Origin: Eledone cirrhosa
Taxonomy: Eukaryota
Assembly (NCBI GenBank): GCA_964016885.1
Contig: OZ024757.1
Coordinates: 13,640,001-13,704,000, forward strand
Direction: 5' to 3'
DNA: 64,000 bases
Numbering within the stretch: position 1 is the stretch's first letter; every line of letters begins with the position of its first letter. A program made the position numbers and the translations under genes. Below are positions 10,079-42,133 of the stretch, in pieces. Under the pieces are notes generated by a model. That model was not told the origin of the DNA and searched no databases. It saw only the letters and a list, made by a program, of their open reading frames with translations.

Positions 10079-10197
10079 CTCATTGCTGACAATTGTTTCT
10101 CTGAACAGGTAGGTCTAGAGATCGCTACCCGCTTGTTTTCACGTTATTCGATCACCAATACAAAGTTATAACCAGTCAATTCATCGGAGCTTGTGAG
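10079..10197 (-). ncRNA. hammerhead-like ribozyme, C4 core variant, long stem II insert
   Basis: Minus strand: ctcacaagct-CCGATGA-(about 80 nt)-GAAA-caattg-TC-agcaatgag; palindromic stem III ACAATTGT, stem I gct/agc extended by ctca/tgag, GUC site. Confidence 0.55.
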
Positions 10198-10406
10198 AAT
10201 GAAAAGAATATACAGGCATCGCTACTATATATAGTAGTAATGGACAACATAGTAATTTACAACATAGGAATTACAGCATACTCGCAGCATAACTATGGAA
10301 ACGCCTTGTTGAGTCAAACTTAGCCAAGCGTTGATATCATCCACTACTCGGAGTACCATAACTGGACTACACTTAATTGGACTACCTATAACAATAATTT
10401 GTTACC

Positions 10407-10477
<71 letters not shown>

Positions 10478-10612
10478 AAAATACAAGGACGAATGATTAC
10501 TCCATTTATTGGTTGGTGATGCGTGTTTTGCACTGCGTGTTTTACTACAAGGTTAGATCTGTATCGATCTGTCCTGACTCTGGAATCAAAAGCTTGTCGG
10601 ACCCTTGCAGTA

Positions 10613-10668
<56 letters not shown>

Positions 10669-10980
10669 TTCGTTTCTGAATTTGTTTAGCAAGATTCTTT
10701 ATCTGAAAACATGTGTTGAAACCGATATTGTTATACTTTGGGAGGGTCATGTTGCCAATAAGAAACACATACACCAGTTGCTTTCACTTCAATTTATTAT
10801 AAATATAAATTTTATAAATTTCCAGTTGGTTGGTTGGTTGGTTCCACAACTGGATTGTTGTTCATATATTGTGAAGGTTCTTTCGTCACACATTATGTGA
10901 CCTCTTCAGTGACTGGGGATTCTTTTCTTTGTTTTGTGCTTCTCCTTTGTTCTGTCCTACGCCATCTTGTTTTTGTGTGT
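10669..10980 (-). mobile_element. family A hammerhead element copy in (TA)n
   Basis: Homologous to 22000-22325; hammerhead at 10871-10913 is slightly degenerate; TA runs on both sides. Confidence 0.8.
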
Positions 10981-11003
10981 TCTATATATATATATATATA
11001 TAT

Positions 11004-11724
11004 TTAAAGCGACGAAATGCCTACGACGGTTGGAAGGCCACTGATGAAGGACAAACTTTTTCATATGTAACCCATTTGCAACGCCGCAGCTCCATTATTA
11101 TCATATTTACACATATATTTTTTCCTCCACTGCTACCCATCTGTTTCGTTCTTTGTAGCAGTCTCTCTCTCTCTCTGTTAGCCTCTTCCTCACCTTTCAC
11201 TCACTCACTCTCTGTCACTACCTCTCCTCCTCCCCTTTCTTCCCGTTTGACCTGTCCGTAATCCTTTCTCGCGGGCACTTGGCCAAGCCGGTATGAATTT
11301 TTTTTCTCTCTCTCTCTCTCGTCTGCGACTTCACAGAACTTATGTTTACCGAATTCGCAGACCAGACCCCTTCTTCCTCCCGTTAGACCTGTGCGAAATT
11401 CCTTCCTTGCTCACATTTCAACCAGGTTTGATGGTCTTTATTCTCTCGTTCACGATTCCACCGAATTTATATTCATAGAAATCTGGGACTTGTTTCTTTC
11501 TTCTTCATCACTTTCTGTTGCTTAAACCATTTTGTTTGTTTACCCTAGCGTCCCCTTTATTTACGTGTCCCAACGACTTTTTTTAGCCATTGCTCGCACC
11601 AACCTGAGGTATATGGCCTTTAAAGCGACGAAATGCCTACGACGGTTGTAAGGCCACTGATGAAGGACAAACTTTTTCATATGTAACCCATTTGCAACGC
11701 CGCAGCTCCATTATTATCATATTT

Positions 11725-11727
<3 letters not shown>
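11004..11727 (+). mobile_element. TA-flanked non-coding element with about 110-bp terminal direct repeats
   Basis: ttaaagcgacgaaatgcctacgacgg...cactgatgaaggac...tcatatttacaca at 11004-11113 and 11620-11727. Confidence 0.75.
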
Positions 11728-11762
<35 letters not shown>

Positions 11763-11851
11763 CACAAATTTAAATTTTGAAGACCAAAACAATGCATATG
11801 AAGAATGTTAAATTACCAAGATAAAAGAATCTTACCTTAGCAAATTAAACG

Positions 11852-11893
11852 ATCCCAAATATTTTCGGGTTTAAAAACCCATTATCAAGGGAG
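11852..11893 (-). ncRNA. minimal type I hammerhead with U3-A8 compensatory core
   Basis: Minus strand: tccc-TTGATAA-t-gggttt-tt-aaaccc-GAAA-atat-TT-ggga; stem I 4 bp, stem II 6 bp, palindromic stem III AATATT. Confidence 0.7.
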
Positions 11894-12126
11894 TAGCCTC
11901 ATGAGAGACTTAAAAATCGATCGGATAGACTTGCTTGTATAGAAGCAGGTTTAAGTTAAATATATACACACACTATATATTTCCTGATGATGACGTTGAT
12001 GATGATGATATATACACACACACATACACATGATTTTCTCTGATGAAAACAAATTCAGTTAAATGATGATATATATATACACACACGTACAAGTGTATAT
12101 ATATATATATATACACACACGTACAA

Positions 12127-12182
<56 letters not shown>

Positions 12183-12263
12183 GTTATTCCGGGTTGAGTC
12201 GGAGGTAACCACAGTAAGTAAGGTACTCAATACATTGCAGAGTATAAAAGTTTTAATATAGAT

Positions 12264-12312
12264 GAGATTCTACAGGACTAGAAATGTTTCATTCTTTAGA
12301 AATCATCAGGAA

Positions 12313-12316
<4 letters not shown>
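12264..12316 (-). ncRNA. type I hammerhead ribozyme (family C element, 12181-12316)
   Basis: Minus strand: gagattc-CTGATGA-tttctaaagaat-GAAA-ca...tg-TA-gaatctc; 7-bp stem I, GUA site. Confidence 0.75.
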
Positions 12317-12344
<28 letters not shown>

Positions 12345-12353
12345 CACATGCAA

Positions 12354-12444
<91 letters not shown>

Positions 12445-12589
12445 CACATATATATATATAAATACACACACACATACAAATATATATACACACACACATA
12501 CAAATATATAGACACACACACATACAAATAAATGATGATATATATATACACACACATATATATATATATATAAATACATAAATATACAC

Positions 12590-12990
12590 GGGTGCGTATG
12601 ATTGTGTATAGAAGATTATATTAAGAGGAATTCCAACTTTGTCTGATTTACTCGTTTTATTTACAATTCTTTAAAATTTATAATGGTATTATAATGAAAT
12701 AGTATGATAGAATATTAAATTCTAAGTGTTAATTGAATAAGTACTTTCATGCTTTCGCAATCTTCAGGTTCATATGTGGTGACAGTCAAGTTTGCAATTT
12801 TCAGTTGAAAATTGCAAACTTGACTGTCACCACACATTATGAACCTGAAGATTGCGAAAGCATGAAAGTACTTGTTCAATTAACACTTAGAATTTAATAT
12901 TCTATCATACTATTTCATTATAATACCATTATAAATTTTAAAGAATTGTAAATAAAACGAGTAAATCAGACAAAGTTGGAATTCCTCTTA
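12590..12990. mobile_element. fold-back element with about 185-bp arms in (TA)n, carrying a hammerhead in each arm
   Basis: Arms 12622-12803 and 12806-12990 are near-perfect reverse complements; centre aattttca-gt-tgaaaatt; extra tail on the left arm. Confidence 0.9.
12840..12878 (+). ncRNA. minimal type I hammerhead ribozyme
   Basis: tgaac-CTGAAGA-ttgc-GAAA-gcat-gaaa-gtac-TT-gttca; perfect 5-bp stem I, stem II reduced to a loop; mirror copy at 12734-12772 (-). Confidence 0.8.
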
Positions 12991-13028
<38 letters not shown>

Positions 13029-13203
13029 AGTATATATATATATATACACGTACAAGTATATATATATATACACATGCAAGTATATATATATATATATATA
13101 TACACATATATATATATAAATACACACACACATACAAATATATAGACACACACACATACAAATATATATATATATAAACACATATACAAATACACACACA
13201 CAC

Positions 13204-13242
<39 letters not shown>

Positions 13243-13357
13243 CAAATATATACACACATATATATAAATACATACACACACATACAAATATATAGACACA
13301 CTCATACAAATACACACACATATGTATACACACAGACACATACATATATATATATAT

Positions 13358-13610
13358 GAGATCGTGTAGGTGTCACGACAAAAAAACACAGTCCACGCTG
13401 TAATGTGGCCGTGTAGGCAACACGGTAAAAACCTCCCAGACCCACACTGTAAATGTGGTTGGTGTTAGGAAGGGCATCCAACTGTAGAAAACCTGCCAGA
13501 CAGTCCTATGCGAGCAAGACAATCACTCTTGCCTCAAGTGGGACTACCCCCCGTCCAAACCCATGCAAGCATGGAACACGGACGTTAAACGTTGATGATG
13601 ATGATGATGA
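13358..13610 (+). mobile_element. RTE LINE 3' UTR fragment inserted in a TA run
   Basis: Matches 30940-31183; ends in (GAT)n. Confidence 0.85.
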
Positions 13611-14700
13611 TATATACACACACACACACAGACATATTGATTGGTTCTGTTTAATGTGTGTAAAAATGTTTGTTATTCCACATGGTCATCTGACATTCCA
13701 CAGTGAGATGGTAGGAACAGAATGTAGAGAGGGGGTGGTGGTTATGGTAGGGTTCGTGGTGGTGGTGGTGGTGAGGGTGTTATGGTAGGGTTCATGGTGG
13801 TTGTGGTGAGGGTGTTATGGTAGGGTTCATGGTGGTGGTGAGGGCGTTATGGTAGGATAGTGGTGGTGGTGAGGGGGTTATGGTAGAGTTCATGGTGGTG
13901 AGGGGGCTATGGTAGAGTTCATGGTGGTGGTGGTGGTGGGGTTCCTGGTGCTGGTGGTGAGGGGGGGTACGGTAGGGTGATGATGATGGTGGTGATGGTG
14001 GTGGTGAAGGTGATTATGGTGGGGTAGTGATGGTGGAGGGGATTATGGTAGGGTGGTAGTGGTGAAGGGGAATATGGTAGGGTGGTGATGGTGGTGGTGG
14101 GGGCGAGGAAGAGTGGGGTCAGAGGTCAGTTGACAAAAACCAAATCTTAAGACCCAAGCAGGAAGGTCTCCATCACTACACTACACTCCCAACCTCACAG
14201 CTCCACCACCACCACCACTACTACCACCACCCCCACCACTACAACCTCCTCCACCACCACCTCCACCACCTCTTCCCAGCTGTTGAAAACAAACATCACA
14301 TGTCACTATATTGCTGATTTAATGTACTCACACACACAATCACCCACACATATACACACATAACTCAGGTGTTTCCCTCCAATCCTTCCTGTTTATACAA
14401 ACCCTGTTACTTCTCCCTATACTTCTTCCCCTCTCTGTATGTCAACCCCTGATGGTCAGTCACACACACATACAGAAAGAGGTCATAGCAGCAGTAGCTT
14501 AAGAGTACAAAAGGCCCCTCCCAAAGGCAATTAACCCTCTGAGTGTATCCCTTTTTCTTTTTCAAAATTGGGATTATCACTCCTAAAGGTGTCTTTCCAG
14601 AGATTCAGGCCTCTCAGCACACAGAAGTTAGCCAGAAAATACCTTCTCTATTTAAGGCCTTTATCCCCTCCAGTGGCCTTGTCATATTTGAGCTCTTTAA

Positions 14701-14918
14701 CTCTTTGGCATCTACATAACTCTCTATGTATTGTATTTTCAAGGTAAAGGCTTTATCTTACATAATTATCTCACATAATATCAAATCTATGAGATTTTGA
14801 TGATATTTATTTTGAGAACAATACCTTAAAAGTGGTATCAGTGGCCGGTTACAGCCAGTTTGAACAGAAAGAGGTGGGAGAATTCTGGCCAGATATAGCT
14901 GGTTTAAATGCTAAAGGG
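14701..14918. mobile_element. piggyBac-type MITE (family P)
   Basis: ttaa|ctctttggcatcta ... taaatgctaaaggg|ttaa; TTAA target duplication with CCC/GGG-type TIR. Confidence 0.8.
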
Positions 14919-15027
14919 TTAAGTTACCATATTTCTAATGAAAAACACTGCTCATTACAGTCTTTAGAAACAATGAGCAATTTTAAATTCATGAAATAAA
15001 TAAAAGCTTTGGTTTTGGTTCACTTAA

Positions 15028-15435
15028 CCCTTTAGCATTTGCATTACACTATATTTACTATTATATTTTTGCAGTAAAGGCTTTACCGACCATAATTATC
15101 TTACATAATATTGAATCTATGAGATTTTGATATTATTTATATTGAGACCTATACCTTAACATCAGTATGAGCAGCCAGTAACAACTGGTTTGAGCAGGAA
15201 GAGGTGAGAGAATTCTGGCCTGATATGGCCAGTTTAACCCTTTAGCATTTAAACCAGCCACAATTCTCTCACCTCTTTCTGTTCAAATCGGCCATACCTA
15301 ACTGCTTATACTGATGTTAAGGTATTGTTCTCAAAATAAATAATATCAACATCTCATAGATTTGATATTATGTGAGATGAAGCCTTTTCTGTGAAAATAC
15401 AATAGTATTTCGAGAGTAATGTGAATGCTAAAGGG
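15028..15435. mobile_element. two family P MITEs head-to-head (inverted dimer)
   Basis: ttaa|ccctttagcattt at 15028 and 15238; ends gctaaaggg|ttaa at 15435. Confidence 0.85.
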
Positions 15436-16040
15436 TTAATATAGAAATGGCTTATACAGGGCAAGAACTTTAATTCGAAAGAAATCATCAGGAAAGCTTT
15501 CCTGATGATTTCTTCCATGCACATAGTACATTCTGTAGAGTTTGTTGTCAAGAAGACCATCTAGCTGTAGAAACCATGCTAAAACTGGAACATATGCCAG
15601 CAAGACTTGTCAACCCCCACACATCAGCCAATACTGTCTTCTTCTGTGACAACCTATCTAACTAAAGTCAGCATGAGAAGAGGCAGGAGTCTTTCATAGC
15701 TCCACAACATTTGCATCTGACATGCCAACATGTTTCTCTCTGTCTCTGTCGTCGCCCCCCCCCCTCTCTGTCTAGATTTATCTCTCACCTCTTATCTCTG
15801 CTCTACAAACTTTCCTATCAGAGTATCTTACATAGACATGAAGAAATATTGGACAGAGGACCTATTTATCATATGTACGTGTTTCTCTCGCTATATATAT
15901 ATACACACACACATATATATAATATATATATATATACACACGACCGTGACTTCTGGCGTCACGCAGTAATACAGGGTACCCGACCTCCCATGGGTACATG
16001 CTGAAGCATATAAACAATATGACCCCCCCCCCCCTCCACC

Positions 16041-16295
16041 GCAAGGTGGCCGTGGAGGTGCCACGGCAAAAAAGCACCCAGCCCACACTGTAAAGTGGAC
16101 GTGTAGGCGCCACGAAAAAGCACCCAGCACTCACTGTAAATGAGGTTGGTGTTAGGAAGGGCATCCAGCTGTAGAAATCAAGCCAGATCAGTTCCTGTAT
16201 GAGCAAGGCATGGTCAGCCGACCAGACACTGCCCACAACAGGACAACCCGTCTAACCCATGCTAGCGTGGAAGAACGGACGTAAAACGGTGATGA

Positions 16296-16298
<3 letters not shown>
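16041..16298 (+). mobile_element. SINE S2 3' part with RTE-type tail
   Basis: ggttggtgttaggaagggcatccagctgtagaaa ... ggacgtaaaacg(gat)n, shared with the RTE 3' UTR. Confidence 0.7.
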
Positions 16299-16332
<34 letters not shown>

Positions 16333-16378
16333 TATATATGTATGTATATATGTATATATATAAATATATATATATATA

Positions 16379-16412
<34 letters not shown>

Positions 16413-16736: not shown

Positions 16737-17260
16737 ATGGTGGATTGGCAGTATCGGTGGAGGGTCGGACGCCATGCTTTGCAGCATAGTTACGTCCCTT
16801 TACGATCTGAGTTCAAATCCCGCCGAGGTTGACTTTGCCTTTCATCCTTACGGGGTCGATAAAATAAAGTACCAGTAATGCACTGGGTAATTGCGGCCTT
16901 GTGCCTAAAGTAGAAACAATTAAATTATGTGGACCACTAATATGAATTTTTTTTAAAAGATAAATACATTTGTAAAATAATAGTTTCTACTTTTGGCACA
17001 AGGCCAGCAATTACCCCAGTGCATTACTGGTACTTTATTTTATCGACCCCGTAAGGATAAAAGGCAAAGTTAACCTCATTTGTAAAATAATTGTTTCTAC
17101 TTTTGGCACAAGGCCAGCAATTACCCAGTGCATTACTGGTACTTTATTTTATCAACCTCGTAAGGATGAAAGGCAAAGTTAACCTCGGCGGGATTTGAAC
17201 TCAGAATGGCAAGGGCCGTAACTCTATGCGTCAAAGCATGGCGTCCGACCCTCTACCAAT
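16737..17260. mobile_element. SINE S1 cluster: one + copy, then two - copies
   Basis: + copy 16737-16922; - copies at about 16980-17078 and 17088-17260. Confidence 0.85.
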
Positions 17261-19040: not shown

Positions 19041-19044
19041 CATA

Positions 19045-19620
19045 TTTATTAAAATAACAGATTAACGTTTAAGCAAAGAATCGCTGCTTTCACCCTTAAA
19101 GGGGTTTTCTGAAACTAAAAAAGTCAATCTGTGAACGCAGAAGTAAATATTTCGAAAAACGTTGCAACCGAAGGAAGACGATACTTTGGTTCGTGGAAAC
19201 GTTCCCTGGCAAAGAACGGAAAAAAACGAATATAATACGTCATTATTTGGAGCAGTGAAAATAATTACAAACCACGTTTATGGTATAAATGAAGTCGTAA
19301 ACTGATATTCTATTAGGTGGTTCGTAGAGACGTTCTCTGGCAAAGAACGTTTTTTTTCCATTCTTTGCCACAAACCAAAGTATCCTCTTCCTGTCTTCCT
19401 TCGGTTGCAACGATTTTTGAAATATTTACTTCTGCATTCACAGATTGATTTTTTTAGTTTCAGAAGATCCCATTAAGGGTGAAAGCAGCGATTCTTTGCT
19501 TAAACTTTAATCTGTTATTTTAATAAATATTTGCTCTACGGTTCTTATATATTTGATATATATTTATCCTTGTCGAGCCCTCTTTGGATTTTAGTCTTCA
19601 AATTTATTATTATTACTATA
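19045..19620. mobile_element. fold-back hammerhead element (family D) in (TA)n
   Basis: Arms at about 19045-19230 and 19350-19530 are inverted; tail 19530-19620; partial copy at 58150-58260. Confidence 0.85.
19456..19506 (+). ncRNA. type I hammerhead, A4 core variant
   Basis: agttt-CAGAAGA-tccc-attaa-gggt-GAAA-gca-gcgattctt-tgc-TT-aaact; all three stems pair. Confidence 0.7.
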
Positions 19621-19648
19621 TATATACATATTTATATATGTATGTATG

Positions 19649-20275: not shown

Positions 20276-20324
20276 TTATATATATATATATATATATAAA
20301 GGTTTACATATATATATATATAAG

Positions 20325-20823
20325 TGTTTTGCAACGGGTCACTTTGTGGCTCAATGAAAAGTTAATAGATTAAATAATCAGAGCTATATATCATAAAACA
20401 TGCCTATAGAATCACCAGATAAAATATATATCATTTCCTCTCCCAATTAGCATAATTAACCATATAAAAAATCGAATAGATCAAGCTATAAGAATAAGGC
20501 TTCTATGAAGAAATCTCCAACAAATAACCGAAACCAGCCCTTCGCGCCGGCTGTGACAGAATATTTATCGAATATTTCAACAGTGTAATCGCCCAGATAT
20601 ACAGTCAATTAAACAGAATTAGGTGTAAAATAAACTAGGAGAAAAGAGAATACATTTATTTACCTCAACCATGGGCTGGTTTCGGTTATTTGTTGGAGAT
20701 TTCTTCATAGAAGCCTCATTCTTATAGCTTGATCTATTCGATTTTTTATATGGTTAATTATGCTAATTGGGAGAGGAAATGGTATATATTTTATCTGGTG
20801 ATTCTATAGACATGTTTTATGAT
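20325..20823. mobile_element. fold-back element in (TA)n with degenerate hammerhead-like core
   Basis: Arms 20390-20540 and 20673-20823 are inverted; ttttat-CTGGTGA-ttctata-GACA-tgtttt; tail on the left. Confidence 0.75.
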
Positions 20824-20904: not shown

Positions 20905-21200
20905 AACCACAAACCCTCCGTCTCAATTGTACTTTTGAAAAGCAGAACTGCGAAACTGGTAAAGGAACCAAATAAATATATATTTTTATAAAAAAAGACT
21001 CCAGTTGCATTTTCGATTTCATCTTTTTTCCTTATATAAATATGTATATGTATATAAGGAAAAAAGATGAAATCGAAAATGCAACTGGAGTCTTTTTGTT
21101 TTTAAATTTTGGTTTTAAGTTTTACCGGTTGCGCATTTCTAATGCTTTTCAAAAATAATTTTGAGATAGAGCGCCCGTGATGTTTGCTCTAATGATGACA
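20905..21200. mobile_element. fold-back element with diverged outer arms
   Basis: Perfect inner arms 20992-21038 and 21052-21097; weaker similarity continues outward. Confidence 0.7.
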
Positions 21201-22329
21201 CAAATATATATATATATATATATATTGTTATACTTTGGGAGGGTCATGTTGCCAATAAGAAACACACGCACCAATTGCTTTCACTTCAATTTATTATATA
21301 TTTATAAATTTATAAATTTACAAATCTACAAATCTATAAATTTCTGGTTGGTTGGTTGGTTCCACAACCAGATAGTTGTTTATATATAGTCATAGTCCTT
21401 TCGTCACACACTCTGTGACCTCTTCAGTGACTGGGGATTCCTTTCTTTGTTTCTGTGCCTTTCCTTTCTTCTGTCCTACGCCATTTTGTTTCTGTGTGTG
21501 TGTTGTGTGCTCAGTTTGCGCATGCGCCACATCCGGGTGTCTGTGTGTGTTTGTGTTCATTTATCTATTTGTTTATTTATTTATTTATTTACATGTTATT
21601 GGTTGGTTGTTTGTTCTATGTGTGTGTGTGTTTTCGTTTTGTCCTTAATTGTAAGTTGTGATGTTGCTGTTCCACTCACATTTTCTATTTAATTTTGGTT
21701 GTAATTCTTTTATGTTTATTGCCTCTGTAATTGTATCTGTAATTTGTCTAAATTTTAGACAAATTACAGAGGCAATAAACATAAAAGAATTACAACCAAA
21801 ATTAAATAGAAAATATGAGTGGAACAGCAACATCACAACTTACAATTAAGGACAAAACGAAAACACACACACACATAGAACAAACAACCAACCAATAACA
21901 TGTAAATAAATAAATAATCAAATAGATAAATGAACACAAACACACACAGACACCCGGATGTGGCGCATGCGCAAACTGAGCACACAACACACACACAGAA
22001 ACAAAATGGCGTAGGACAGAAGAAAGGAAAGGCACAGAAACAAAGAAAGGAATCCCCAGTCACTGAAGAGGTCACAGAGTGTGTGACGAAAGGACTATGA
22101 CTATATATAAACAACTATCTGGTTGTGGAACCAACCAACCAACCAGAAATTTATAGATTTGTAGATTTGTAAATTTATAAATTTATAAATATATAATAAA
22201 TTGAAGTGAAAGCAATTGGTGCGTGTGTTTCTTATTGGCAACATGACCCTCCCAAAGTATAACAATATCGGTTTCAACATACGATTTCAGATAAAGAATC
22301 TTGCTAAACAAATTCAGAAACGAAATAAA

Positions 22330-22518: not shown

Positions 22519-22644
22519 CATACATATATACATATATATATATATTTATGTGTCATCATTAGAGCAAACATCACGGGCGCTCTATCTCAAAATTATTTTT
22601 GAAAAGCATTAGAAATGCGCAACCGGTAAAACTTAAAACCAAAA
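21107..22644. repeat. 1.5-kb near-perfect palindrome centred at 21753 (family A fold-back plus duplicated flank)
   Basis: Centre gtctaaa-t-tttagac; 21225-21752 mirrors 21754-22265; 21107-21203 mirrors 22548-22644. Confidence 0.92.
22058..22102 (+). ncRNA. type I hammerhead ribozyme of family A
   Basis: agtca-CTGAAGA-g-gtcaca-gagtg-tgtgac-GAAA-ggac-TA-tgact; mirror at 21388-21432 (-); further copies at 25474-25516 (+), 36753-36795 (-) and 58434-58476 (+). Confidence 0.8.
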
Positions 22645-22754
22645 CTGAATACTAACCAATACTATTACTAATTTTTACTTTTCCTAATTAAACTATTTTT
22701 CACTGGGAACAATTTGTCAGCATTTTCTTTTCCTTTTACCAATATATATATATA

Positions 22755-25287: not shown

Positions 25288-25344
<57 letters not shown>

Positions 25345-25345
<1 letters not shown>

Positions 25346-25672
25346 TTCGTTTCTGAATTTGTTTAGCAAGATTCTTTATCTGAAAACGTGTGTTGAAACC
25401 AACACACACAAAAAACAAGATGGCGTAGGACAGAACAAAGGAGAGGCACAAAAAACAAAGAAAAGAATCCGCAGTCACTGAAGAGGTCACATAATGTGTA
25501 ACGAAAGAACTTTGACAATATATAAACAACCATCTGGTTGTGGAACCAACCAACCAACCAACCGGAAATTTATAAATTCCTAAATTTATAAATTTATTAT
25601 AATAAATTGAAGTGAAAGCAACTGGTGCGTGTGTTTTTTATTGGCAACATGACCCTCCCAAAGTATAACAAT
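25345..25672 (+). mobile_element. family A hammerhead element with inverted tail segment
   Basis: Tail 25346-25400 is inverted relative to body 25401-25672; intact hammerhead at 25474-25516. Confidence 0.8.
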
Positions 25673-26003
25673 ATATATAATCATTCATCATCATTTAGGG
25701 CCATTCCTCCCTCCCTTCCAACCAAGTGTTGGCCTGGATCTTCACAGCGAGATGTCAGTACTCATATGGAGCTACTGACCTCACAGATGCAGGAGGTTGT
25801 TTTCTCAAGAAAGGACTCAATACGTGATATAGAGTCAAATGTATTGTTTATTATTATAGTATTATTTTTGCTCTAGTTGGTGGTAACTTCAAGATTTTGC
25901 TGAGGGTGGCTTATCATGCATGCATGCATATAGCCAAGCCTGAGTCTGTTTATGTGGACACACAATTATATAATTCAAATGTGACACGTGCGCAAACACA
26001 CGC

Positions 26004-30066: not shown

Positions 30067-31183
30067 AAGTATGGGTGCATAAAAGATGTAGTGGGATCAC
30101 AGGTAAGCTAACTAAGAACATAGATTTTACATGTGGCCGGTGCTCTGGTGCAATAAGTAGCAGCAAGTGCCCACAAAATACTAGCTCTTTCAATTGCGCA
30201 GAGGGTTCTATAGAAATAGTGGACAGCTTCCGTTACCTGGGCGATAAAATCAGCAGTGGGGGAGGGTGCTCTGAAAGTACTGTAGCTAGAGTCAGAACTG
30301 GTTGGAAAAAGTTCAGAGAGCTTATACCACTATTAGCTGCTAAAGGGTTCTCCCTAAAAATGAAAGGCAGGTTGTACGATGCCTGCATACGAACAGCAAT
30401 GCTGCATGGCAGTGAGACCTGGGCATTGTGTGCAGAGGATATACGCAGACTAGAGAGGAACGAAGCTTGCATGCTCCGCTGGATGTGTAACAGTAATATA
30501 CGTGAACGGCAAAGCATAAACGAACTAAGGAAAAAATTAGAGATAAGAGGGATCAGATGTTGTTTACTCGAGAGAAGGCTACGTTGGTATGGACACGTGA
30601 TGCGCATGAAAGTCGATAGCTGTATAACAAAGTGCAGGGCAATAAAGATAGACGGTAGTCACGGAATAGGCAGACCTAGAAAAACCTGGGACGAGCTGAT
30701 AAACTCCGACATCACACACTTACACCTCTCCAAGACAATGTCACTGGACCGAGACCTTTGGCGGTACTCAGTAACAGAGAAGACCCGCCTTACCTAAATA
30801 TATAGTAAAACCTACTCCAGCCAGTAGGCATCTCTAACAAAATACACCCCGTCCCACCACCACCACCCCCACCTCATCCACACCACCCCGTTCTATGTAA
30901 AGTTATGTTGGTGCCGCGCCATCGAGGCCGAAACAAATGAGATCGTGTAGGTGTCACGACAAAAAAACACACAGTCCACGCTGTAATGTGGCCGTGTAGG
31001 CAACACGGTAAAAACCTCCCAGACCCACACTGTAAATGTGGTTGGTGTTAGGAAGGGCATCCAACTGTAGAAAACCTGCCAGACAGTTCTATACGAACAA
31101 GACAACCAATCTTGCCTCAAGTGGGAAAATTCCCGTCCAAACCCATGCAAGCGTGGAAGATGGATGTTAAACGATGATGATGA
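30062..31183 (+). mobile_element. 5'-truncated RTE-clade LINE, copy 2, within (TA)n
   Basis: Closely similar to 4304-5772; TA runs on both sides. Confidence 0.92.
30075..30797 (+). pseudogene. C-terminal part of the RTE ORF (open to its natural stop)
   Basis: FRYLG, LHGSETW, RLRWYGHV, GRPRKTW, DRDLWR. Confidence 0.9.
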
Positions 31184-31227: not shown

Positions 31228-31235
<8 letters not shown>

Positions 31236-31545
31236 AGAACAAAAGATGGTTAAAAGAGTTCCATGTATTTTATTATGCGCATTTCAAAAACAAATATCAT
31301 CATGCAATAATATTTGTGTTTTCATCAGATAAAACAGGAAGACATGATATGAAGGTTAAAAAACACTTGTGGATAGTTCAGTTTTAAATCAACATTTGAA
31401 ATGCGCATAATAAAATACATGGAACTCTTTTAACCATCTTTTGTTCTTATATATTATGTATACTCCAGTCCTACAAACTGTAGAGTGCTTCTTATCCGAT
31501 ATCTGCATTGCTTTATTGTACTACAATAAAACTCACCTCCTACAT
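31228..31545. mobile_element. fold-back hammerhead element in (TA)n
   Basis: Arms 31228-31288 and 31395-31456; tail with tagagtgctt. Confidence 0.85.
31268..31334 (-). ncRNA. type I hammerhead ribozyme
   Basis: Minus strand: ttttat-CTGATGA-aaac-acaaatatt...gatatttgt-tttt-GAAA-tgcgca-TA-ataaaa; palindromic stem III ATGCGCAT. Confidence 0.82.
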
Positions 31546-31685: not shown

Positions 31686-31974
31686 AAATAATATAATATA
31701 TAATATAATTGTTTCTACTTTTGGCACAAGGCCAGCAATTACCCAGTTCATTATATATAATATAAAATAATATAATATATAATATAATTGTTTCTACTTT
31801 TGGCACAAGGCCAGCAATTACCCAGTTCATTACTGGTACTTTATTTTATCGACCCCCTAAGGATGAAAGGCAAAGTTAACCTCGACGGGATTTGAACTCA
31901 GACCATAAAGGGTCGTAACTATGCTGGAAAGCATGGCGTCCGACCCTCCACTGATACTGCCAATTCACCGCCCT
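31558..31974. mobile_element. SINE S1 (full - copy 31785-31974) with inverted 3' fragments around a TA run
   Basis: + tail 31558-31630, - tail 31705-31750, then the full - copy. Confidence 0.85.
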
Positions 31975-32264
31975 ATAATATAATAGATGCAAATTTATAT
32001 GTAACAAAGTGATAGTTGTTGGTCAGTACTGATCACATCTTCTAAAGGATATCTCTGACTAAATTATCTAAATTTTCTTTATTTTTGTGAAGTTGTTTTG
32101 AGGGATATTTGACTTTTATTTCTAGCATATGAAATAACCACCTAGTGGCTCCCTCTAGTTTGGTATGGTTGAACTGTTTCTTTTGCTCCAATTGGTAGAT
32201 TTTCCTTTCATATTTCAACACCCTCCTCCTCCTCCCCCTCCTGTTCTCCTTTTCTCTCTCTCTC

Positions 32265-34070: not shown

Positions 34071-34197
34071 ACACAACACTCACACACACACATATATATA
34101 TAGTTGTTGTATGGTTGCAATTAAATGCGTCCGTGGGCGGTATGCCGTTTGAGCACTCGATGTTCGCGCAGAGCAGAGAATATTATTATAGATAATA

Positions 34198-34388
34198 GGG
34201 CGGTGGTTTGGCAGTATCGGTAGAGGGTCGGGTGCCATGCTTTGAAGCACAGAGTTACGTCCCTTTATGATCTGAGTTCAAATCCCACTGAGGTTAACTT
34301 TGCCTTTCATCCCTACGGGGTCGATAAAATAAAGTACCAGTAATGCACTGGGTAATTGCTGGCCTTGTGCCTAACGTAGAAACAATTA
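34198..34388 (+). mobile_element. SINE S1 with target-site duplication
   Basis: Full copy; attattatagataa on both sides. Confidence 0.9.
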
Positions 34389-34433
34389 TTATAGATAACG
34401 AGGAATCAGAAATGCATCAAAACACAATTTATT

Positions 34434-34527
34434 AACATATTACATATGTTTCTCCGACGATCAGCTCAAGGCAGGACCTGTTACAGAATGAACCCGGCTC
34501 TGCAATTGTAAGTTCCTCAGATATGTT
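34434..34527 (-). ncRNA. type I hammerhead with long domain II insert
   Basis: Minus strand: aacatat-CTGAGGA-(about 60 nt)-GAAA-catatg-TA-atatgtt; 7-bp stem I, palindromic stem III ACATATGT, GUA site. Confidence 0.75.
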
Positions 34528-34708
34528 TTGCGTTTACAAAGCATTCCATCGGATGCGATTGCAGAGTCGTGTTCATTCTGTAATAGATCCTGTCTTGAGC
34601 TGATCGTCGGAGAAACATATGTAATATGTTAATAAATTGTGTTTTGATGCATCACTGATTCCTCGTTATCTATAGGGCACATGGCTTAGTGGTTAGAGCA
34701 TTGGCCTT

Positions 34709-35040
34709 GGAGGCACATGGCTTAGTGGTTAGAGCATTGGCCTTGCAATCGAAAGGTTGTGAGTTCAATTCTCAGACCGGGTGATGTGTTGTTTCCTTGA
34801 GCAAGACACTTTATTTCACATTGCTCCAGTTTACTCAGCTGTAGAAATGAGATGATAGGGACTGGGGTCCCTATCATTCCACTGCAAAGTGGTCGTGGAG
34901 GTGCCACGGCAAAAAAGCACCCAGCACTCACTGTAAATGAGGTTAGTGTTAGGAAGGGCATCCAGCTGTAGAAATCAAGCCAGCATCAGTTCTCGTCCCA
35001 CCTTTGCAAGTAGGGAAAAAGCGGACGTAAAATGAAATGA
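34709..35040 (+). mobile_element. SINE S2 (tRNA head, CORE-like centre, RTE-type tail)
   Basis: ggaggcacatggcttagtggttagag, gagttcaattc, ccttgagcaagacacttt, aggaagggcatccagctgtagaaa; 3' part repeated at 37925-38120. Confidence 0.8.
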
Positions 35041-35059
35041 TATATATATATATATATAA

Positions 35060-35490
35060 ATATATTCAGAATAACAATAAATGATGAAGACATTCACATA
35101 ATCAAAATATATGTTTTATTATATATATTTCGGAGGTACTGTGCTGTTTTTTCAGTACGTCCTCGTCAGATAAAATACATGAATTGATGTATGACATACC
35201 TCAACTGTCTTGATGGTTCAATTAGTACTGCCAATACTGGAATTGAACCATCAAGACAGTTAAGGTATGTCATACATCAATTCATGTATTTTATCTGACG
35301 AGGACGTACTGAAAAAACAGCACAGTACCTCCGAAATATATATAATAAAACATATTTTGATTATGTGAATGTCTTCATTTATTAATATTTTGAATATTAA
35401 TAACTCCAGAAAATTTCTTTGTAGAGTGCTTTTAATCTATTGTAAAACTATATTAATTGAGTAATCAATGAACCATATTAATCTTTGGTT
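35060..35490. mobile_element. fold-back hammerhead element (family E) in (TA)n
   Basis: Arms about 35062-35223 and 35240-35397; tail to 35490; tail-only homologue at 41725-41860 (-). Confidence 0.88.
35289..35350 (+). ncRNA. type I hammerhead ribozyme
   Basis: ttttat-CTGACGA-ggacgtactg-loop-cagtacctcc-GAAA-tatata-TA-ataaaa; mirror at 35114-35175 (-). Confidence 0.82.
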
Positions 35491-36447
35491 ATATATATAG
35501 ATATATACACCTGTGCACAGCAACTCAAACACATACACACACACAATCTCACATCTCAGCATAATGTCAAATGTGATAAACGAAAAAGGAAAAGAGAAAT
35601 TAACAAATAAAAATGAAATAATATAACAAATTTTAAAACTAAATTAAACAATTATATATTTTTATGGGAGAGGAGGGATTGCAAATAAAGGTGTGGCAAG
35701 TATTTTATAAGCAGTCACCAACAGACTTAATATGTTGGTGTCACACCTCATCAAACACAGCTTGCACTGTACTGCACTGGATAGGCACAGCTGCTGCAGA
35801 TATACAACATACACACACACATGTGTGTGTGTATGTGTGTGTGTGCTGTAAATGTATGTACGGATATTGTGCATATACACACATATATATATATATACAC
35901 ATACATATATATATATATATACACAGACACACACATATATTTATATATACATACATATAGTTTGTGTTCATGTGTTGTTTTGTTATTTCATTTCTACACG
36001 CTGTTCGCTTGTCTGCTTTTAATTACCAGTTGATTTTTTTTTTTTTTCCCTTCGGTATTTTAGCAGTGTTATTAGTTAATGTGTTGAGCACTACTGAACA
36101 TCGATTCCAACTGTGACTAACCCCACTGAAAAGTTTCGTGAAATGGTCTTTTAAGACTATATAGTGCATTTGTAGTTTTCCCCAAATTGACGGTTAAGTA
36201 TTACTTCTTGATTTTATTTTGAATTAAGATTGTATTGCTTTTTCCCCAACTTACACAAAGTTTGATGATAAAGTTTTTATTCTTGATTTGTTTTGAATTA
36301 GGATAGTATTAATTTTTCCTCATCTTACATTAAATATTTTTTCATCTTGATGGTATAGTCACTTATATACCTGAATTATTGTTGGCATTATGCTTACATT
36401 AATTTTATTTTCATTTATATATACAGACACACACATATATATATATA

Positions 36448-36579
36448 GGAAAAGAGTCAGGACCTCGACGGCTGTCAGCAGTCGGCGTCCTGACTCTTTT
36501 CCTATTACCCACTCTACTACCCTAAGTATCGAGTACTCTGGTGCGTTATGGTCCACCTGGTATCTTACCACACCTTCTT

Positions 36580-36585
<6 letters not shown>
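36448..36585 (+). mobile_element. short fold-back plus tail element (family F)
   Basis: ggaaaagagtcaggac...gtcctgactcttttcc hairpin, then tattacccactctactaccctaagtatcgagtactctggtgcg; same tail at 40685-40765. Confidence 0.75.
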
Positions 36586-36642
<57 letters not shown>

Positions 36643-36649
<7 letters not shown>

Positions 36650-36901
36650 ATACTTTGGGAGGGTCATGTTGCCAATAAGAAACACACACACCAGTTATTA
36701 TAAGTTTCCGGTTGGTTGATTGGTTATATAACCGGATGGTTGTTCATATATTGTCAAAGTTCTTTCGTCACACATTCTGTGACCTCTTCAGTGACTGGGA
36801 ATTCTTTTCTTTATTTTCTATTTGACTCTCCCAAAGTATAACAATGTCGGTTTCAACACACATTTTCAGATAAGGAATCTTGCTAAACAAATTCAGAAAC
36901 G
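36643..36901. mobile_element. family A element, fold-back form
   Basis: Body 36643-36812 with hammerhead on the - strand, then an inverted end plus tail at 36824-36901. Confidence 0.8.
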
Positions 36902-37166
36902 ACATATATATATATATATGTTCAATTTGTCAAGCTATTTAAACGTTTGTTATTACTCTAAGGATCTACCCTTCTTGAATGCTTTCCTAACTCATTCCTA
37001 TTGTAGGTCGACTTTGCTTGCCCACAGCCAAAGCTTCAATTTTACTAAGCTTCCACTTGTATATATGCGAGCAAGACAACCACTCTTGCCTCAAGTGGGA
37101 AAACTCCCGTCCAAAACCATGCAAGCGTGGAACATGGATGTTAAACGATGATGATGATGATGATGA

Positions 37167-37240
<74 letters not shown>

Positions 37241-37542
37241 GGTATGGATATTCCAACAGGCACCAAGTACCTACACAAATATGCATGGTGTTTATAATAG
37301 TTGTGGTTCGATGGTATTAATTTGAAATACCAGTACCCTTTTATAATTATTCTCCTTATGTAGAGAACAAAACGTATCGCACTGCTATTTTTAGCGGCAT
37401 GATCAACAAGTTTATAATATCCCGCTTTTACTTATAGCCTATTTTTGTGTGTGTGTCACTTTAACGGCCTGACCCCATGCAACGGGCAGGACGCGATATT
37501 TTCTCTTACTATGAGACTTTATACCCTTATGGTACGGAAATA

Positions 37543-37622
37543 GCTGTCTGAAGATCTAATTCTTTCCATTGGAAATTCTCTGAATTTCCAATCTTTTGAT
37601 TAGTGAAACCGTCGGTAACGGC
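37543..37622 (+). ncRNA. type I hammerhead ribozyme
   Basis: gctgt-CTGAAGA-tctaat...attggaaattc-tct-gaatttccaat...attagt-GAAA-ccg-t-cgg-TA-acggc; GUA site; within TA-flanked unit 37235-37700. Confidence 0.8.
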
Positions 37623-37695
37623 AATAGAACAGGTGAATATTTAAATCGTATTTTAATTTATTTAAAAGATTGTTTGATGATTACTTGTTCCGCTC

Positions 37696-37766
<71 letters not shown>

Positions 37767-37843
37767 ATATCCGTACACACATATACAACCACAACACACA
37801 GACATGCATAACCCTCACCCACATATATACATATATGCATAAT

Positions 37844-37877
<34 letters not shown>

Positions 37878-37892
37878 TTGCACAATATACAT

Positions 37893-37925
<33 letters not shown>

Positions 37926-38966
37926 GTTTACTCAGCTGTAGAAATGAGATGATAGGGACTGCAAAGTGGTCGTGGAGGTGCCACGGCAAAAAAGCACCCA
38001 GCACTCACTGTAAATGAGGTTGGTGTTAGGAAGGGCATCCAGCTGTAGAAATCAAGCCAGAATCAGTTCCCGTCCCACCCTTGCAAGCAGGGAAAAAGTG
38101 GACGTAAAAATGAAATGAAAAATGATGAAAAATGATATATATATATATGTACAACACACATGTAAACATATAGAGACAACACTCACACACACAAATACCA
38201 TCACACTGTTGCAGATTGTGACAGTAACAATAACAACAACATTAACAACCACAACAACAGTAGCAATAACAACCAGTGCGAGTAATAACAACAGGCAGTC
38301 ACAACAACAACAACAGTAGTAATAACAAGCACAGTCACAATAAACACAGTAACAATAACAACCACAACAACAAGACAGTCACAATAAACACAATAACAAC
38401 CACAACAGCCACAACAACACTAGCAATAACAACAACAGACACAATAACAGTTGCCACAACAACAACAGTAACAACAACAGCCAGAACAATAACAGTAACA
38501 ATGACAACATACGGGTAACAGCTGAAGGTGTTAAACTGTATGGGGGGGGGAGTAGAGTAAGAGAGATAGGGGGAGAGAGAGAGAGGAAGGGAGATGGAGA
38601 GATAATTATTTGTTGAAAATAAAAGCTACAGTAAGATATAAATAAAAGCACCTGTCCTTTGTTTACTGGGGTGGTGGTTAGTGGGGAAGGGTGTAGTTAG
38701 AGGGGGCGGGGGGTAATAGTTGGGTGACAGTTGGTGGGAGGTGGTAGTTGGGTGACAGTTGGGAGAGATGGTAGGGGTGGTAGCTAGAGGTGACAGTATG
38801 GAAAGTCCATTGAGGTTTGGGAGTCTGTATGGGTGATAATAGGGAAAGTCCATTAAAGTAATAGTTTGGGACAGTCTGTAGGGGGTGGTTTCTGATTTAA
38901 GCACAAGGCCAACAACTTTTTTTTTTTTTATCATTTTTGGTGGGGGGGGGGGGGGGGGGGGAGTAA

Positions 38967-39180
38967 CCCTTTAGCATTTAAACCGGCCACATCTGGCCAG
39001 AATTCTCTCACCTCTTTCTGTTCAAACCGGCTGTGACTGGCCACTCATACTGATGTTAAGGTATTGTTCTCAAAATAAATAACGTCAAAATCTCATAGAT
39101 TCGATATTATGTGACATAAAGCCTTTACCACAAAAATACAATAGTATATATAGAGTAATGTAAATGCTAAATACTAAAGG
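38967..39180. mobile_element. family P MITE
   Basis: ccctttagcatttaaaccggcc ... gtaaatgctaa. Confidence 0.85.
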
Positions 39181-39328
39181 AGTAAATCGGACCCCATTGT
39201 ATTACTGGTGCTTTATTTTATCGATCCAGTAAGGCAAAGCTAACACATATTAATGTGAACATATTACACACACACATTCATGTACATAAAACCTTCCAAA
39301 CTATTTATCTAGACACACCAGATAATGT

Positions 39329-39387
<59 letters not shown>

Positions 39388-39389
<2 letters not shown>

Positions 39390-39784
39390 AAAGTTCTATT
39401 TAAATTGTTGGGATACAACAAGCATATATTTTTATAACTGATATAAAGCACTCAACAAATAATTGGAGTAAAAATACAATATTAACAAATGGAAACTATA
39501 TTTATAAAACCATATTTATTTCATTATACATATTTCAAGGACACCAAGTTAAATTTTGGTGTGCTTTCATCAGATAAAATATAATATAGAGCAGTTTTAT
39601 AAATAAAAGGAGCTTCCAACAGTAATGGTTGCATTCTTTAAGGGTATGTCAATATTTATTTATAAAACTGCTCCATATTATATTTTATCTGATGAAAGTA
39701 CACCATAATTTAACTTGGTGTCCTTGAAATATGTATAATGAAATAAATATGGTTTTATAAATATAGTTTCCATTTGTTAATATC

Positions 39785-39785
<1 letters not shown>
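39388..39785. mobile_element. fold-back hammerhead element in (TA)n
   Basis: Arms 39479-39607 and 39655-39783; tail 39388-39478. Confidence 0.88.
39683..39743 (+). ncRNA. type I hammerhead ribozyme
   Basis: ttttat-CTGATGA-aagtacacca-loop-tggtgtcctt-GAAA-tatgta-TA-atgaaa; mirror at 39519-39579 (-). Confidence 0.82.
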
Positions 39786-39828
<43 letters not shown>

Positions 39829-40059
39829 TAGAATGATCGAGAATCGGAATATCAGCCCACGAAATCACGATAAACAATATCCGACATGTGTGGCAGAGGG
39901 CTCAATAATTTGGATAAACCAGAGCTATAACTATCGTTAAAGTACCAACACACAGAGATCGTGCCTAAAATCACCCGTGCAGCCGAAAAAGAACGACCAG
40001 GAAGATTCGGGTCACTCAAATAAAATATCAATAAATTAATAAATTAAATTAATGTAAAA

Positions 40060-40118
<59 letters not shown>

Positions 40119-40572
40119 TACAGAACATGAATAAAAGGCTGGAACATCACTACAAACCAAGACCATCTCATACCACCATCACCATACCACCACCACTACC
40201 AGCACCACCTTATTACTATCACACATACATACACCACTACCATCACCACCACCATCACACATCACCACCACTACCACCACCTCCACCACCACCAACACCA
40301 CTATCAACATGCAGTAAGTGCATTAGTAAATATTTATAGCAGGAGTAATCTATCAGGTGCAGTAATTCAGGACCAAAATAGAAGATAGCAATATCTTTAC
40401 TATATATACAGGGTGTTCCCAGAAAATGTATACACACTTCAACAGCATTCTAATCAAAATGTGTATACAACTTTTTAGGACACCCTGTATATATATACAC
40501 ACACACACATACATAACTGCTTACGTTATTATCTATCTATCTATATATATCATTATATATATATATATATAT

Positions 40573-40765
40573 AGGAAAAAATATGACCCCGACGGCAGAG
40601 CTCAAGCCGTTTCGACAGCTATTTCTGGACTCCAGAAATAGCCGTCGAAACGGCTGAGCTCTGCCGTCGGGGTCATATTTTTCCTATTACCCACTCTACT
40701 ACCCTAAGTATTGAGTACTCTGGTGCGTTATGATCCATCTGGTTCCTTACCACATTTCCTTCATT
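40573..40765 (+). mobile_element. family F fold-back retaining the 3' half of a hammerhead
   Basis: Arms 40573-40629 and 40631-40685; GAAA-cggc-tgagctct-gccg-TC; the CUGANGA half is absent. Confidence 0.75.
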
Positions 40766-40879
40766 ATATATATATAAGAATAATCTTAACTATAATAAAG
40801 AAAGGAATGCGGGACTGCATCCAGAATATATTTTTTTTATCCCGTTTGTAAAATAAGTTGGATTACTTTGAATAAATAA

Positions 40880-41065
40880 TTGTTTCTACTTTAGGCACAA
40901 GGCCAGCAATTACCCAGTGCATTACTGGTACTTTATTTTATCGACCCCGTAAGGATGAAAGGCAAAGTCAACCTCGGCGGGATTTGAACTCAGATCGTAA
41001 AGGGACGTAACTATGCTGGAAAGCATGGCGTCCGACCCTCCACCGATACTGCCAATCCACCGCCC
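40880..41065 (-). mobile_element. SINE S1 with 14-bp target-site duplication
   Basis: tttgaataaataat at 40867-40880 and 41066-41079. Confidence 0.92.
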
Positions 41066-41669
41066 TTTGAATAAATAATGAATGAATATTACATAATTTA
41101 TGTGCTAAATTTCGTGGCTGTTGATTAAATATATTTTATAGCTTATTTAAAGATTCACTTCTTTAAAATTTTCAAATGTCAACACTTCCGGTTAGCGGCC
41201 GTTATATTATAACACTTATAAAAATATCGCATATATTTCCGTCGCTAATTTTCTCCTAATGCAGTTTATATATAATATCGTCTTTTTTTAAATGTATCAT
41301 GGATTACTTTACTGATTACAGAAGACAGTGTAACATAGACTTCGTTCAACTTCTGTGTATATTGTCAATTACGATTTTATTTGATGTATCATATCTACAT
41401 GTGTATATATTTGTGTATAATATCAATATACACACTACACATGCAAGCAGAAAACCACCCAAGGGTGGTTTTTCTGCTAGTATTAGTAATAAACGAAAGA
41501 TATATATTTTATATCATCTCTATTTATTTTATTATATATATTTTTAAGATATAAAGGTTTATGTATAACATAAAGCAAAACATGTCCTCTTCAGACAAAA
41601 TACATAGATATATAATTGTTTCATGATATGCTGGTTGACAAACTAGCTGGACACATCAGTGACCACCAA

Positions 41670-41727
<58 letters not shown>

Positions 41728-41870
41728 CCAAAAGTTTAACAAGGTTCATATCAATGAATAAAGTTTTACAATAGATTAGAAGCACTCAACAAAGAAGTTT
41801 TCTGGAGTTATTAATATTACTTCAAAATATTAATAAATATAGACATTGATGTGATCAAATATATATATAT

Positions 41871-42133
41871 AAGTTTATCCCGGGTTCATTTGGAGTTAAC
41901 CACAGTAAGTAAGGTACTCAGTACATAGCAGAGTATATTTAATATAGAAATGGCTTCTACAGGACTACAACTGTTTCATTCGGGAGAAATCATCAGGAAT
42001 GAAACAGATTTTTCCCGAATGAAATAGTTCTAGTCCTGTAGAAGCCATTTCTATATTAAATATTTATACTCTGCTATGTACTGAATACCTTACTTACTGT
42101 GGTTACCCCGCGAATGAACTCGGGATAAACTTA
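41871..42133. mobile_element. family C fold-back hammerhead element
   Basis: Arms 41871-41990 and 42008-42133; hammerhead at 41955-41999 (-): ttc-CTGATGA-tttctcccgaat-GAAA-cag...ctg-TA-gaa. Confidence 0.85.

Follow-up and report, generated by a model that had tools for sequence, protein, structure and literature searches.

What kind of element leaves a dozen small hammerhead-ribozyme motifs, each set in a (TA)n microsatellite, within a few tens of kilobases of an octopus genome? The question arises in a 64,000-nucleotide (nt) stretch of Eledone cirrhosa DNA (GenBank assembly GCA_964016885.1, contig OZ024757.1, positions 13,640,001 to 13,704,000; hereafter the window, numbered from its first letter), drawn from a 3.0 Gb genome rich in simple repeats. 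A first-pass annotation had read the motifs as a dense, diverse set of non-autonomous ribozyme retroelements. Our analysis sorts them into eleven families (F1–F11; Table 1), of which ten are probably short, mostly head-to-head insertions of the pseudo-long terminal repeat (pLTR) end of Penelope-like elements (PLEs), with F10 likely borrowing the same enzymes.

The motifs were sought with a strict type I descriptor (CUGANGA, stem I of at least 4, stem II of at least 3 and stem III of at least 2, GAAA, UH), using 40 whole-window and 40 block-wise dinucleotide shuffles and the reversed sequence as controls; an earlier descriptor, which did not tolerate a mismatched basal pair in stem II, had given only five matches and was then relaxed. 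The strict descriptor matched 12 times in the window—seven of the twelve sites named in the first-pass annotation plus five extra copies—against shuffle means of 0.05 and 0.03 (maximum 1) and none in the reversed sequence, while relaxed descriptors gave 10–14 matches against shuffle means of 0.10–0.53 (maximum 3). All twelve named sites satisfy one of four descriptors and lie where they had been placed, on the strands assigned to them. Relaxation was needed at 19456 (CAGAAGA core), 11852 (U3-A8 core), 10079 (CCGAUGA core and 3-bp stem I), 41955 (3-bp stem I, the copy being cut at that point) and 34434 (stem II not closing). Rfam returned nothing at gathering score for the window and no hammerhead among the matches listed (the best 150 of 376 at E ≤ 10), so that type I hammerheads of the PLE kind in TA microsatellites, as first proposed, had been missed by it.

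A structure survey covering the window together with every locus fetched (1.6 Mb, in which these families are enriched) gave 573 matches in 76 clusters, 24 of which held at least three matches. Within these 24, the stem III stretch is wholly self-complementary in 17, as in hammerheads thought to act as dimers (PMC4209133), and the core pair is C3-G8 in 22 and U3-A8 in two, both bases having switched together, a covariation already described (PMC4209133). Stem II positions 5–8, which the descriptor does not require, are paired in 32 of 32 cells (eight alignable clusters, TTTTAT group) compared with 6–18 of 32 in slid controls, and the changes are double-sided, with G-C/A-U and U-A/C-G swaps. 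The claims of structure above chance and of covariation thus both stood, and we regard the hammerheads as real conserved type I folds and predicted ribozymes. To the notion that they are chance matches, or miniature inverted-repeat transposable elements (MITEs) of DNA transposons, we give practically no credence: the sequence is AT-rich, and a palindromic shape with TA flanks is MITE-like, but against this stand the shuffles and the covariation, together with the variable junctions, one-sided tails, solo copies and long copies linked to a reverse transcriptase (RT) that are described below. Both origins were rejected on the shuffles, the RT-linked long copies, the tail counts and the covariation.

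The units had been described as unrelated in primary sequence. BLAST across families found a single 15-nt match, in keeping with that description, but 31268, 35289 and 39683 share a stem I and can be aligned around the core; the diversity amounts to eleven families, since 12264 and 41955 belong to one (F3).

A link to Penelope RT/GIY-YIG open reading frames (ORFs), which the first-pass annotation had suggested looking for, emerged for ten of the eleven families: long copies elsewhere in the genome reach an endonuclease ORF upstream, on the hammerhead's strand. Such a link was accepted only with shared contiguous upstream sequence, as a motif census within 4.5 kb also catches adjacent unrelated PLEs. 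Long F9 copies carry RT, a CxCx5C linker and GIY-YIG on the hammerhead strand 1.3–1.6 kb upstream (L031, L032, L034, L035, L038, L039, L041 and L045), and for F6 an RT plus GIY-YIG ORF lies directly upstream in many of 19 other loci (L047-L065). The ORF is found upstream in seven of 13 other F7 loci, in three of 15 for F1 (a same-strand CxCx5C/GIY-YIG ORF at L126, L133 and L135), at L070 and L081 for F4, at L148 for F5 (common to L147 and L151), at L154 and L167 for F2 (CCHH-type GIY-YIG), at L196 and L197 for F3 (one ORF end in common) and at L228 only for F11. The weakest link is that of F8, with an endonuclease ORF upstream at L212 and four more places where an F8 match and, 1–2 kb upstream of it, the F8 endonuclease 3′ region share a strand. 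RT motifs were found for F3, F4, F6 and F9; the Pfam GIY-YIG model scored above cut-off for F2 and F4 and below it for F3, F6 and F9, and Pfam gave no match for F1 or F7. A homologue search returned six proteins of the same architecture, and a search of solved structures only weak bacterial RT matches. From this continuity we identify ten of the eleven families as terminal (pLTR) fragments of ORF-bearing PLEs.

Near-identical long F6 elements form a cluster (L050, L051 and L057-L060; G000:C4:94.67-94.81 Mb), some about 4 kb apart, in which the tail is followed by the ORF start; this is a candidate source locus. The F6 stubs at 9664, 10980, 25400 and 58377 begin 61–78 nt before the core, just upstream of the word CAAGATGGCG, which we take to resemble a YY1 site.

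The units could instead be self-amplifying non-autonomous families—retrozymes, or solo pLTRs akin to short interspersed nuclear elements (SINEs)—that are transcribed, self-cleaving, circularised and mobilised in trans. A fixed 5′ edge, such as that reported below, could equally mark a short family with an internal promoter, and ORF-less hammerhead arrays do occur in this genome. As an account of the ten families we nevertheless find this improbable: they continue into ORFs, their junctions vary between copies, and their 5′ ends do not fall at the cleavage site. Nor do the short copies stand apart from the long ones in the two best-sampled families. Net divergence between short and long F4 is 0.0009, with shared polymorphic sites and no fixed difference (55 short, 9 long, permutation p 0.12), and for F9 it is 0.0014, again with polymorphic sites in common and no fixed difference (45 short, 23 long, permutation p 0.012); by this comparison the short copies of F4 and F9 make up no separate lineage.

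Only for F10 did the retrozyme proposal of the first-pass annotation hold. In 38 loci, what follows this 466-nt unit (GC 35%, longest ORF 74 aa) is another copy of the unit, its first 108 nt or TA; in none does it run on into an ORF. It shows the inversion and one-sided tail of the PLE stubs, runs past one unit in head-to-tail partial tandems, and has scattered 5′ ends. We consider F10 alone to be non-autonomous, fitting a non-LTR retrozyme, and it likely uses PLE enzymes. Three other arrays belong beside it. At L264:5900-8100, a 311-nt ORF-less hammerhead unit is repeated four times on one strand and twice on the other, head-to-head between TA runs, which we identify as a retrozyme array with PLE inversion; at L265 and L270, hammerhead units of 482 and 422 nt, related to each other and each with a TA run inside it, are repeated in long tandem arrays.

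Ten of the twelve window sites lie in head-to-head fold-backs, 11852 and 12264 being solo. The plan is an inverted arm, a junction and a forward arm, with both 3′ ends facing outward into (TA)n; one side carries an additional tail. This layout and the (TA)n preference are already published (PMC8557442, PMC3846280, PMC4209133): PMC8557442 draws the same arrangement for PLEs, with the (TA)n preference, and PMC3846280 describes the TATA box, TCACT initiator and tail. Pairs, tails and ends were counted on copies picked by the hammerhead core only, and positions are given in nt from core C3. Exactly one tail was present in 12 of 14 F9 and 11 of 13 F4 inverted pairs (23 of 27); a further 14 F9 and 12 F4 loci were solo, and one F9 locus lacked the main match. 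Each family has two fixed 3′ ends, one with and one without the tail, at +108 or +200 in F9 and at about +154 or at +186 or beyond in F4; TATATA adjoins 34 of 42 F9 3′ ends against a background of 13%. Junction positions vary from copy to copy. Just past the first 3′ end, Hydra-type tails share ACTC(C/T)...GAGT (F1, F3, F7, F8, F9, F11 and the one at 40686-40730), with GCTC...GAGC as the F5 variant; a hairpin in this motif was rejected, since all eight folds were no better than shuffles (z +0.07 to -1.58). Contigs from three runs of one sample covering 34950-35700 had high depth across the element, with no empty site clearly visible, and were not used as evidence.

Palindromes of PLE origin might also arise by self-priming (snap-back) on an antisense template with random 5′ truncation, which is the published reading of head-to-head junction palindromes in rotifer Penelope (PMC3846280). 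In its favour, the two arms within an insertion resemble each other more closely than they do other copies: arm-to-arm identity is 97.2% in F7 against 93.8% to other copies (closer in 11 of 11) and 95.5% against 93.9% in F9 (closer in 10 of 11). In six of the twelve one-tail F9 pairs, however, the tail-less arm extends further 5′ than the tailed one and each arm has sequence that the other lacks, so that neither can be a DNA copy of the other and simple DNA snap-back is ruled out for these pairs; moreover, the 5′ ends of F3, F4 and F9 are not random. We consider snap-back improbable.

For the 5′ ends, copies were not selected for upstream sequence, and both arms of a pair were counted separately. 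In F4, 33 of 43 ends fall at -47 to -39 (22 of them at -44), with the initiator at -42 and the TATA box at -75. Of 46 F9 ends, 23 lie at -70 to -62, four further upstream and 19 are shorter (initiator -68, TATA -100), and 42 of 47 F3 ends lie at or after -10 (initiator -10, TATA -37). The initiator sits 27–33 nt behind the TATA box in all three. Since these stubs begin just past the TATA box, they probably represent copied 5′ portions of the element's own RNA. There is no pile-up at the cleavage site, within 2 nt of which lie 7 of 203 ends from six families, which suggests that the template RNA was mostly uncleaved.

These observations can be assembled into a mechanism. The element's endonuclease would nick both strands of a (TA)n tract, and each nick would serve as primer for copying uncleaved element RNA into DNA, the tail-less start being used by one and the tail start by the other. 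From a start in the RNA's 5′ pLTR, the complementary DNA (cDNA) would run off the 5′ end of the RNA after 150–270 nt; the two cDNAs would be joined head-to-head, and the resulting stubs would lose the TATA box. In vitro, an anole PLE cut and extended both target strands, with two internal starts defining the tail and ribozyme cleavage not needed (PMC11167929), and the Penelope transcription start has been placed in the pLTR (PMC2377424). It is a tentative but serious possibility that the stubs preserve, across the genome, an in vivo record of this PLE reaction, in which both cut (TA)n strands prime on uncleaved RNA at two fixed internal sites and copying begun in the 5′ pLTR ends in a strong-stop-like run-off at the transcription start.

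A template of another kind would leave the same trace. Were it a separate short transcript, begun at a TATA box within the 3′ pLTR of long copies with a tail, the 5′ edge, the intermingling of short with long copies and the DNA pattern would all be as expected from run-off on element RNA, and the 3′ pLTR holds sequences needed for transcription (PMC2377424). Such RNAs, on the other hand, lack coding capacity and would have to be recruited in trans, and a pLTR with tail does occur upstream of the ORF at L034, L035, L040 and L042. We judge the short transcript unlikely.

Several points weigh against the PLE-fragment interpretation or its run-off mechanism. The copy samples consist of the 40 best-identity candidates scored and are skewed towards young copies. 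Some difference between short and long copies exists in F7, F3 and F9 (permutation p 0.001, 0.019 and 0.012, respectively), with long sets chosen by one query and hence open to selection bias. The ORF links of F8 and F11 run through low-complexity spacers or depend on a single locus. TA flanks adjoin only 18 of 38 F4 ends, the F4 tail reference being too short. The 5′ edge of F7, near -70, lacks a TATA box at the spacing to be expected, in F5 and F6 no clear edge coincides with a TATA-initiator pair, F11 is diffuse, and F1, F2 and F8 provide one or two unselected copies each. The transcription start itself is a prediction from TATA/initiator spacing, and the hammerheads of F1, F5 and F8 deviate in the core or in stem II.

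What becomes of the ribozymes once inserted can be gauged from folding. Predicted stem I pairing probability is 0.00–0.11 in all nine folded fold-backs, compared with 0.48 and 0.94 in two solo stubs, although in four of the nine the isolated motif already folds poorly. The palindrome is predicted to bury the hammerhead, and with the TATA box lost as well, most copies are likely dead-end by-products rather than active ribozymes.

Density was estimated from 40 stretches of 10 kb at round coordinates (400 kb, 0.013% of the genome). These held 50 strict matches, or 8.0 per 64 kb, against 0–4 in five shuffle runs, and 28 of the 50 sit in three tandem arrays. The window therefore holds about 1.5 times the sampled mean, or about three times without the arrays, so that its description as very dense is mildly true. 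Crude extrapolation gives roughly 1.5–3.7 × 10^5 hammerhead motifs genome-wide, and hairpins are predicted to bury most of them.

Were the run-off account true, it would explain how a few long elements could give rise to hammerhead palindromes on the order of 100,000, and promoters could be mapped from DNA alone; F10 would then be a retrozyme that shares the two-start signature but lacks a 5′ edge, which is what a circular or multimeric template should produce. The origin of tandem and inverted PLE insertions is still described as open (PMC8557442, PMC11167929), and thousands of short copies with fixed 3′ ends, single tails and a promoter edge yield testable predictions about how PLEs insert. 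Through its insertion signature, F10 ties a retrozyme-type unit to PLE enzymes. Annotation tools see the stubs as MITEs or microRNA hairpins; they should be filed as PLE fragments.

Table 1. Hammerhead-bearing insertions and related stubs in the window, with strand in brackets.
Feature	Span	Parts	Hammerhead
F1 fold-back, Hydra-type PLE	10026..10407 (-)	hammerhead arm 10026-10243 (-); tail-only arm 10256-10407 (+)	CCGAUGA core, long stem II
F2 solo stub	11755..11961 (-)		11853-11892, U3-A8 core
F3 solo stub, Hydra-type	12183..12315 (-)	begins at initiator-like site	12264-12316
Second F3 insertion, fold-back	41875..42128 (-)	arm 41875-41999 (-); arm 42007-42128 (+)	41955-41999, stem I cut to 3 bp
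Other F3 stubs	5799-5899, 15429-15516		
F4 fold-back, CCHH-type, Neptune-like linker	12563..12998 (+)	tailed arm 12563-12803 (-); tail-less arm 12799-12998 (+)	12840-12878 in tail-less arm (+)
F5 fold-back, Hydra-type	19042..19624 (+)	arm 19042-19347 (-); tailed arm 19365-19624 (+)	19456-19506 in tailed arm, CAGAAGA core
F6 fold-back, CCHH-type, Neptune-like linker	21222..22327 (+)	arm 21222-21732 (-); tailed arm 21754-22327 (+)	21388-21432 in (-) arm; 22058-22102 in tailed (+) arm
Other F6 stubs	9664-9880, 10662-10980, 25334-25674, 36642-36912, 58377-58630		
F7 fold-back, Hydra-type	31229..31543 (-)	arm 31229-31401 (-); short arm 31395-31454 (+); tail to about 31543	31266-31336 in (-) arm
F8 fold-back, Hydra-type	34103..34674 (-)	tail 34103-34195 (-); hammerhead arm 34395-34553 (-); short arm 34554-34674 (+); SINE-like repeat 34197-34390 nested between tail and body	stem II unclosed
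F9 fold-back, Hydra clade	35055..35491 (+)	tail-less arm 35055-35233 (-); tailed arm 35227-35491 (+); both begin at TCACT initiator	35114-35175 in tail-less arm; 35289-35350 in tailed arm
Another F9 stub	41731-41866		
F10 retrozyme-like unit, ORF-less, 466 nt	37233..37699 (+)	inverted tail 37233-37336 (-); body 37322-37699 (+)	37543-37622 in (+) body
F11 fold-back, Hydra-type	39390..39785 (+)	tail 39390-39479 (-); arms 39479-39607 (-) and 39608-39785 (+)	39517-39581 in (-) arm; 39681-39745 in (+) arm
Extra strict-descriptor matches			21388 (-), 35114 (-), 36753 (-), 39517 (-), 58434 (+)

The window holds further units of related appearance. Another hammerhead family at 20921-21202 (U3-A8 core, motif 20932-20964) has a second copy at 22549-22740, tail-to-tail across the F6-bearing TA tract and 100% identical over 96 nt. 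Fold-backs of yet another family, cut within the hammerhead, lie at 36429-36584 and 40574-40760; its longer copies, found at other loci, show a U3-A8 core with a stem III of 6 bp. A TA-flanked unit at 11003-11730 is bounded by direct repeats of about 110 nt, in each of which a single CTGATGA fails to complete a hammerhead, and a TA-flanked palindrome at 20323-20821 (arms 20392-20540 and 20673-20821, 93% identical) has no descriptor match. An abundant SINE-like repeat (34197-34390, 16739-16922, 31789-31985 and 40875-41066) is often found at TATA points within PLE stubs. At 30070-30800, after a TA run, lies a C-terminal RT fragment of a long interspersed nuclear element, which we take to be RTE-like.

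Among known systems, the families divide by motif into a Hydra-type group (F1, F3, F5, F7, F8, F9 and F11) and a group with a CCHH endonuclease (F2, F4 and F6). The Hydra clade is defined by a CxCx5C linker, no CCHH, CxxC/CxH near the conserved E and N, and DKT (PMC8557442). The CxCx5C linker occurs in F1, F5, F7, F8, F9 and F11 and is degenerate in F3; CCHH is absent, with CxxC before E and CxH after N, in F1, F3, F5, F7 (by alignment) and F9, the F8 and F11 fragments being incomplete. In the N-terminal RT region, read for F9 only, copy L035 has DKT and RWR, where the Hydra clade has RWK. F4 and F6 join a Cx2-5CxxC linker to the CCHH endonuclease, and F2 has CCHH with an atypical linker; the Naiad order was ruled out for F4 and F6, in which RT lies upstream of the endonuclease.

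The seven Hydra-type families are nearest to the Hydra clade of PLEs with a C-terminal endonuclease (Craig et al., 2021, PMC8557442; Hydra-1_Obim, Penelope-13_HM), whose supplement includes an octopus family that prefers (TA)n and carries a hammerhead. Both have (TA)n targets, a type I hammerhead near the 3′ end and an inverted 5′ copy. They differ in that one window holds seven divergent families, with six endonuclease fragments 34–47% identical to that of F1, and in tails of about 85–170 nt compared with 30–40 in the published account. The 13-nt motif of the Hydra-1_Obim hammerhead is absent from the fetched loci, so the window families differ from Hydra-1_Obim.

The CCHH families resemble the Neptune-like and Penelope-Poseidon PLEs with an endonuclease (Cervera and De la Pena, 2014, PMC4209133; Arkhipova et al., 2013, PMC3846280) in their CCHH-type GIY-YIG. 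Also held in common are minimal hammerheads with a palindromic stem III, an extra base after A9 and U3-A8 variants; opposite-strand hammerhead pairs 100–700 bp apart; and a pLTR with TATA box and TCACT initiator, head-to-head junctions and an optional tail. The window families are placed here by motifs, and the pile-up of 5′ ends at the initiator is a feature of the window that the accessible parts of PMC4209133 and PMC3846280 do not state. In the literature covered, which leaves out most subscription papers, we found no statement of insertion 5′ ends at a PLE initiator and no account of hammerhead stubs at this scale in octopus; an octopus repeat annotation counts Penelope-like families, with no mention of ribozymes in its accessible portion (PMC13282606).

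The metazoan non-LTR retrozymes (Cervera and de la Pena, 2020, PMC7229834; Li, Clavereau and Pollet, 2026, bioRxiv 10.64898/2026.07.22.740005) are the counterpart of F10, which is likewise short, low in GC and ORF-less, with a type I hammerhead and head-to-tail copies. Unlike them, F10 is dispersed as roughly one or two units, with PLE inversion, a fixed 108-nt tail and no long arrays. The other ten families depart from retrozymes in that their long copies run into PLE ORFs, and on these comparisons we class the set as new families of known PLE clades together with one retrozyme-like unit.

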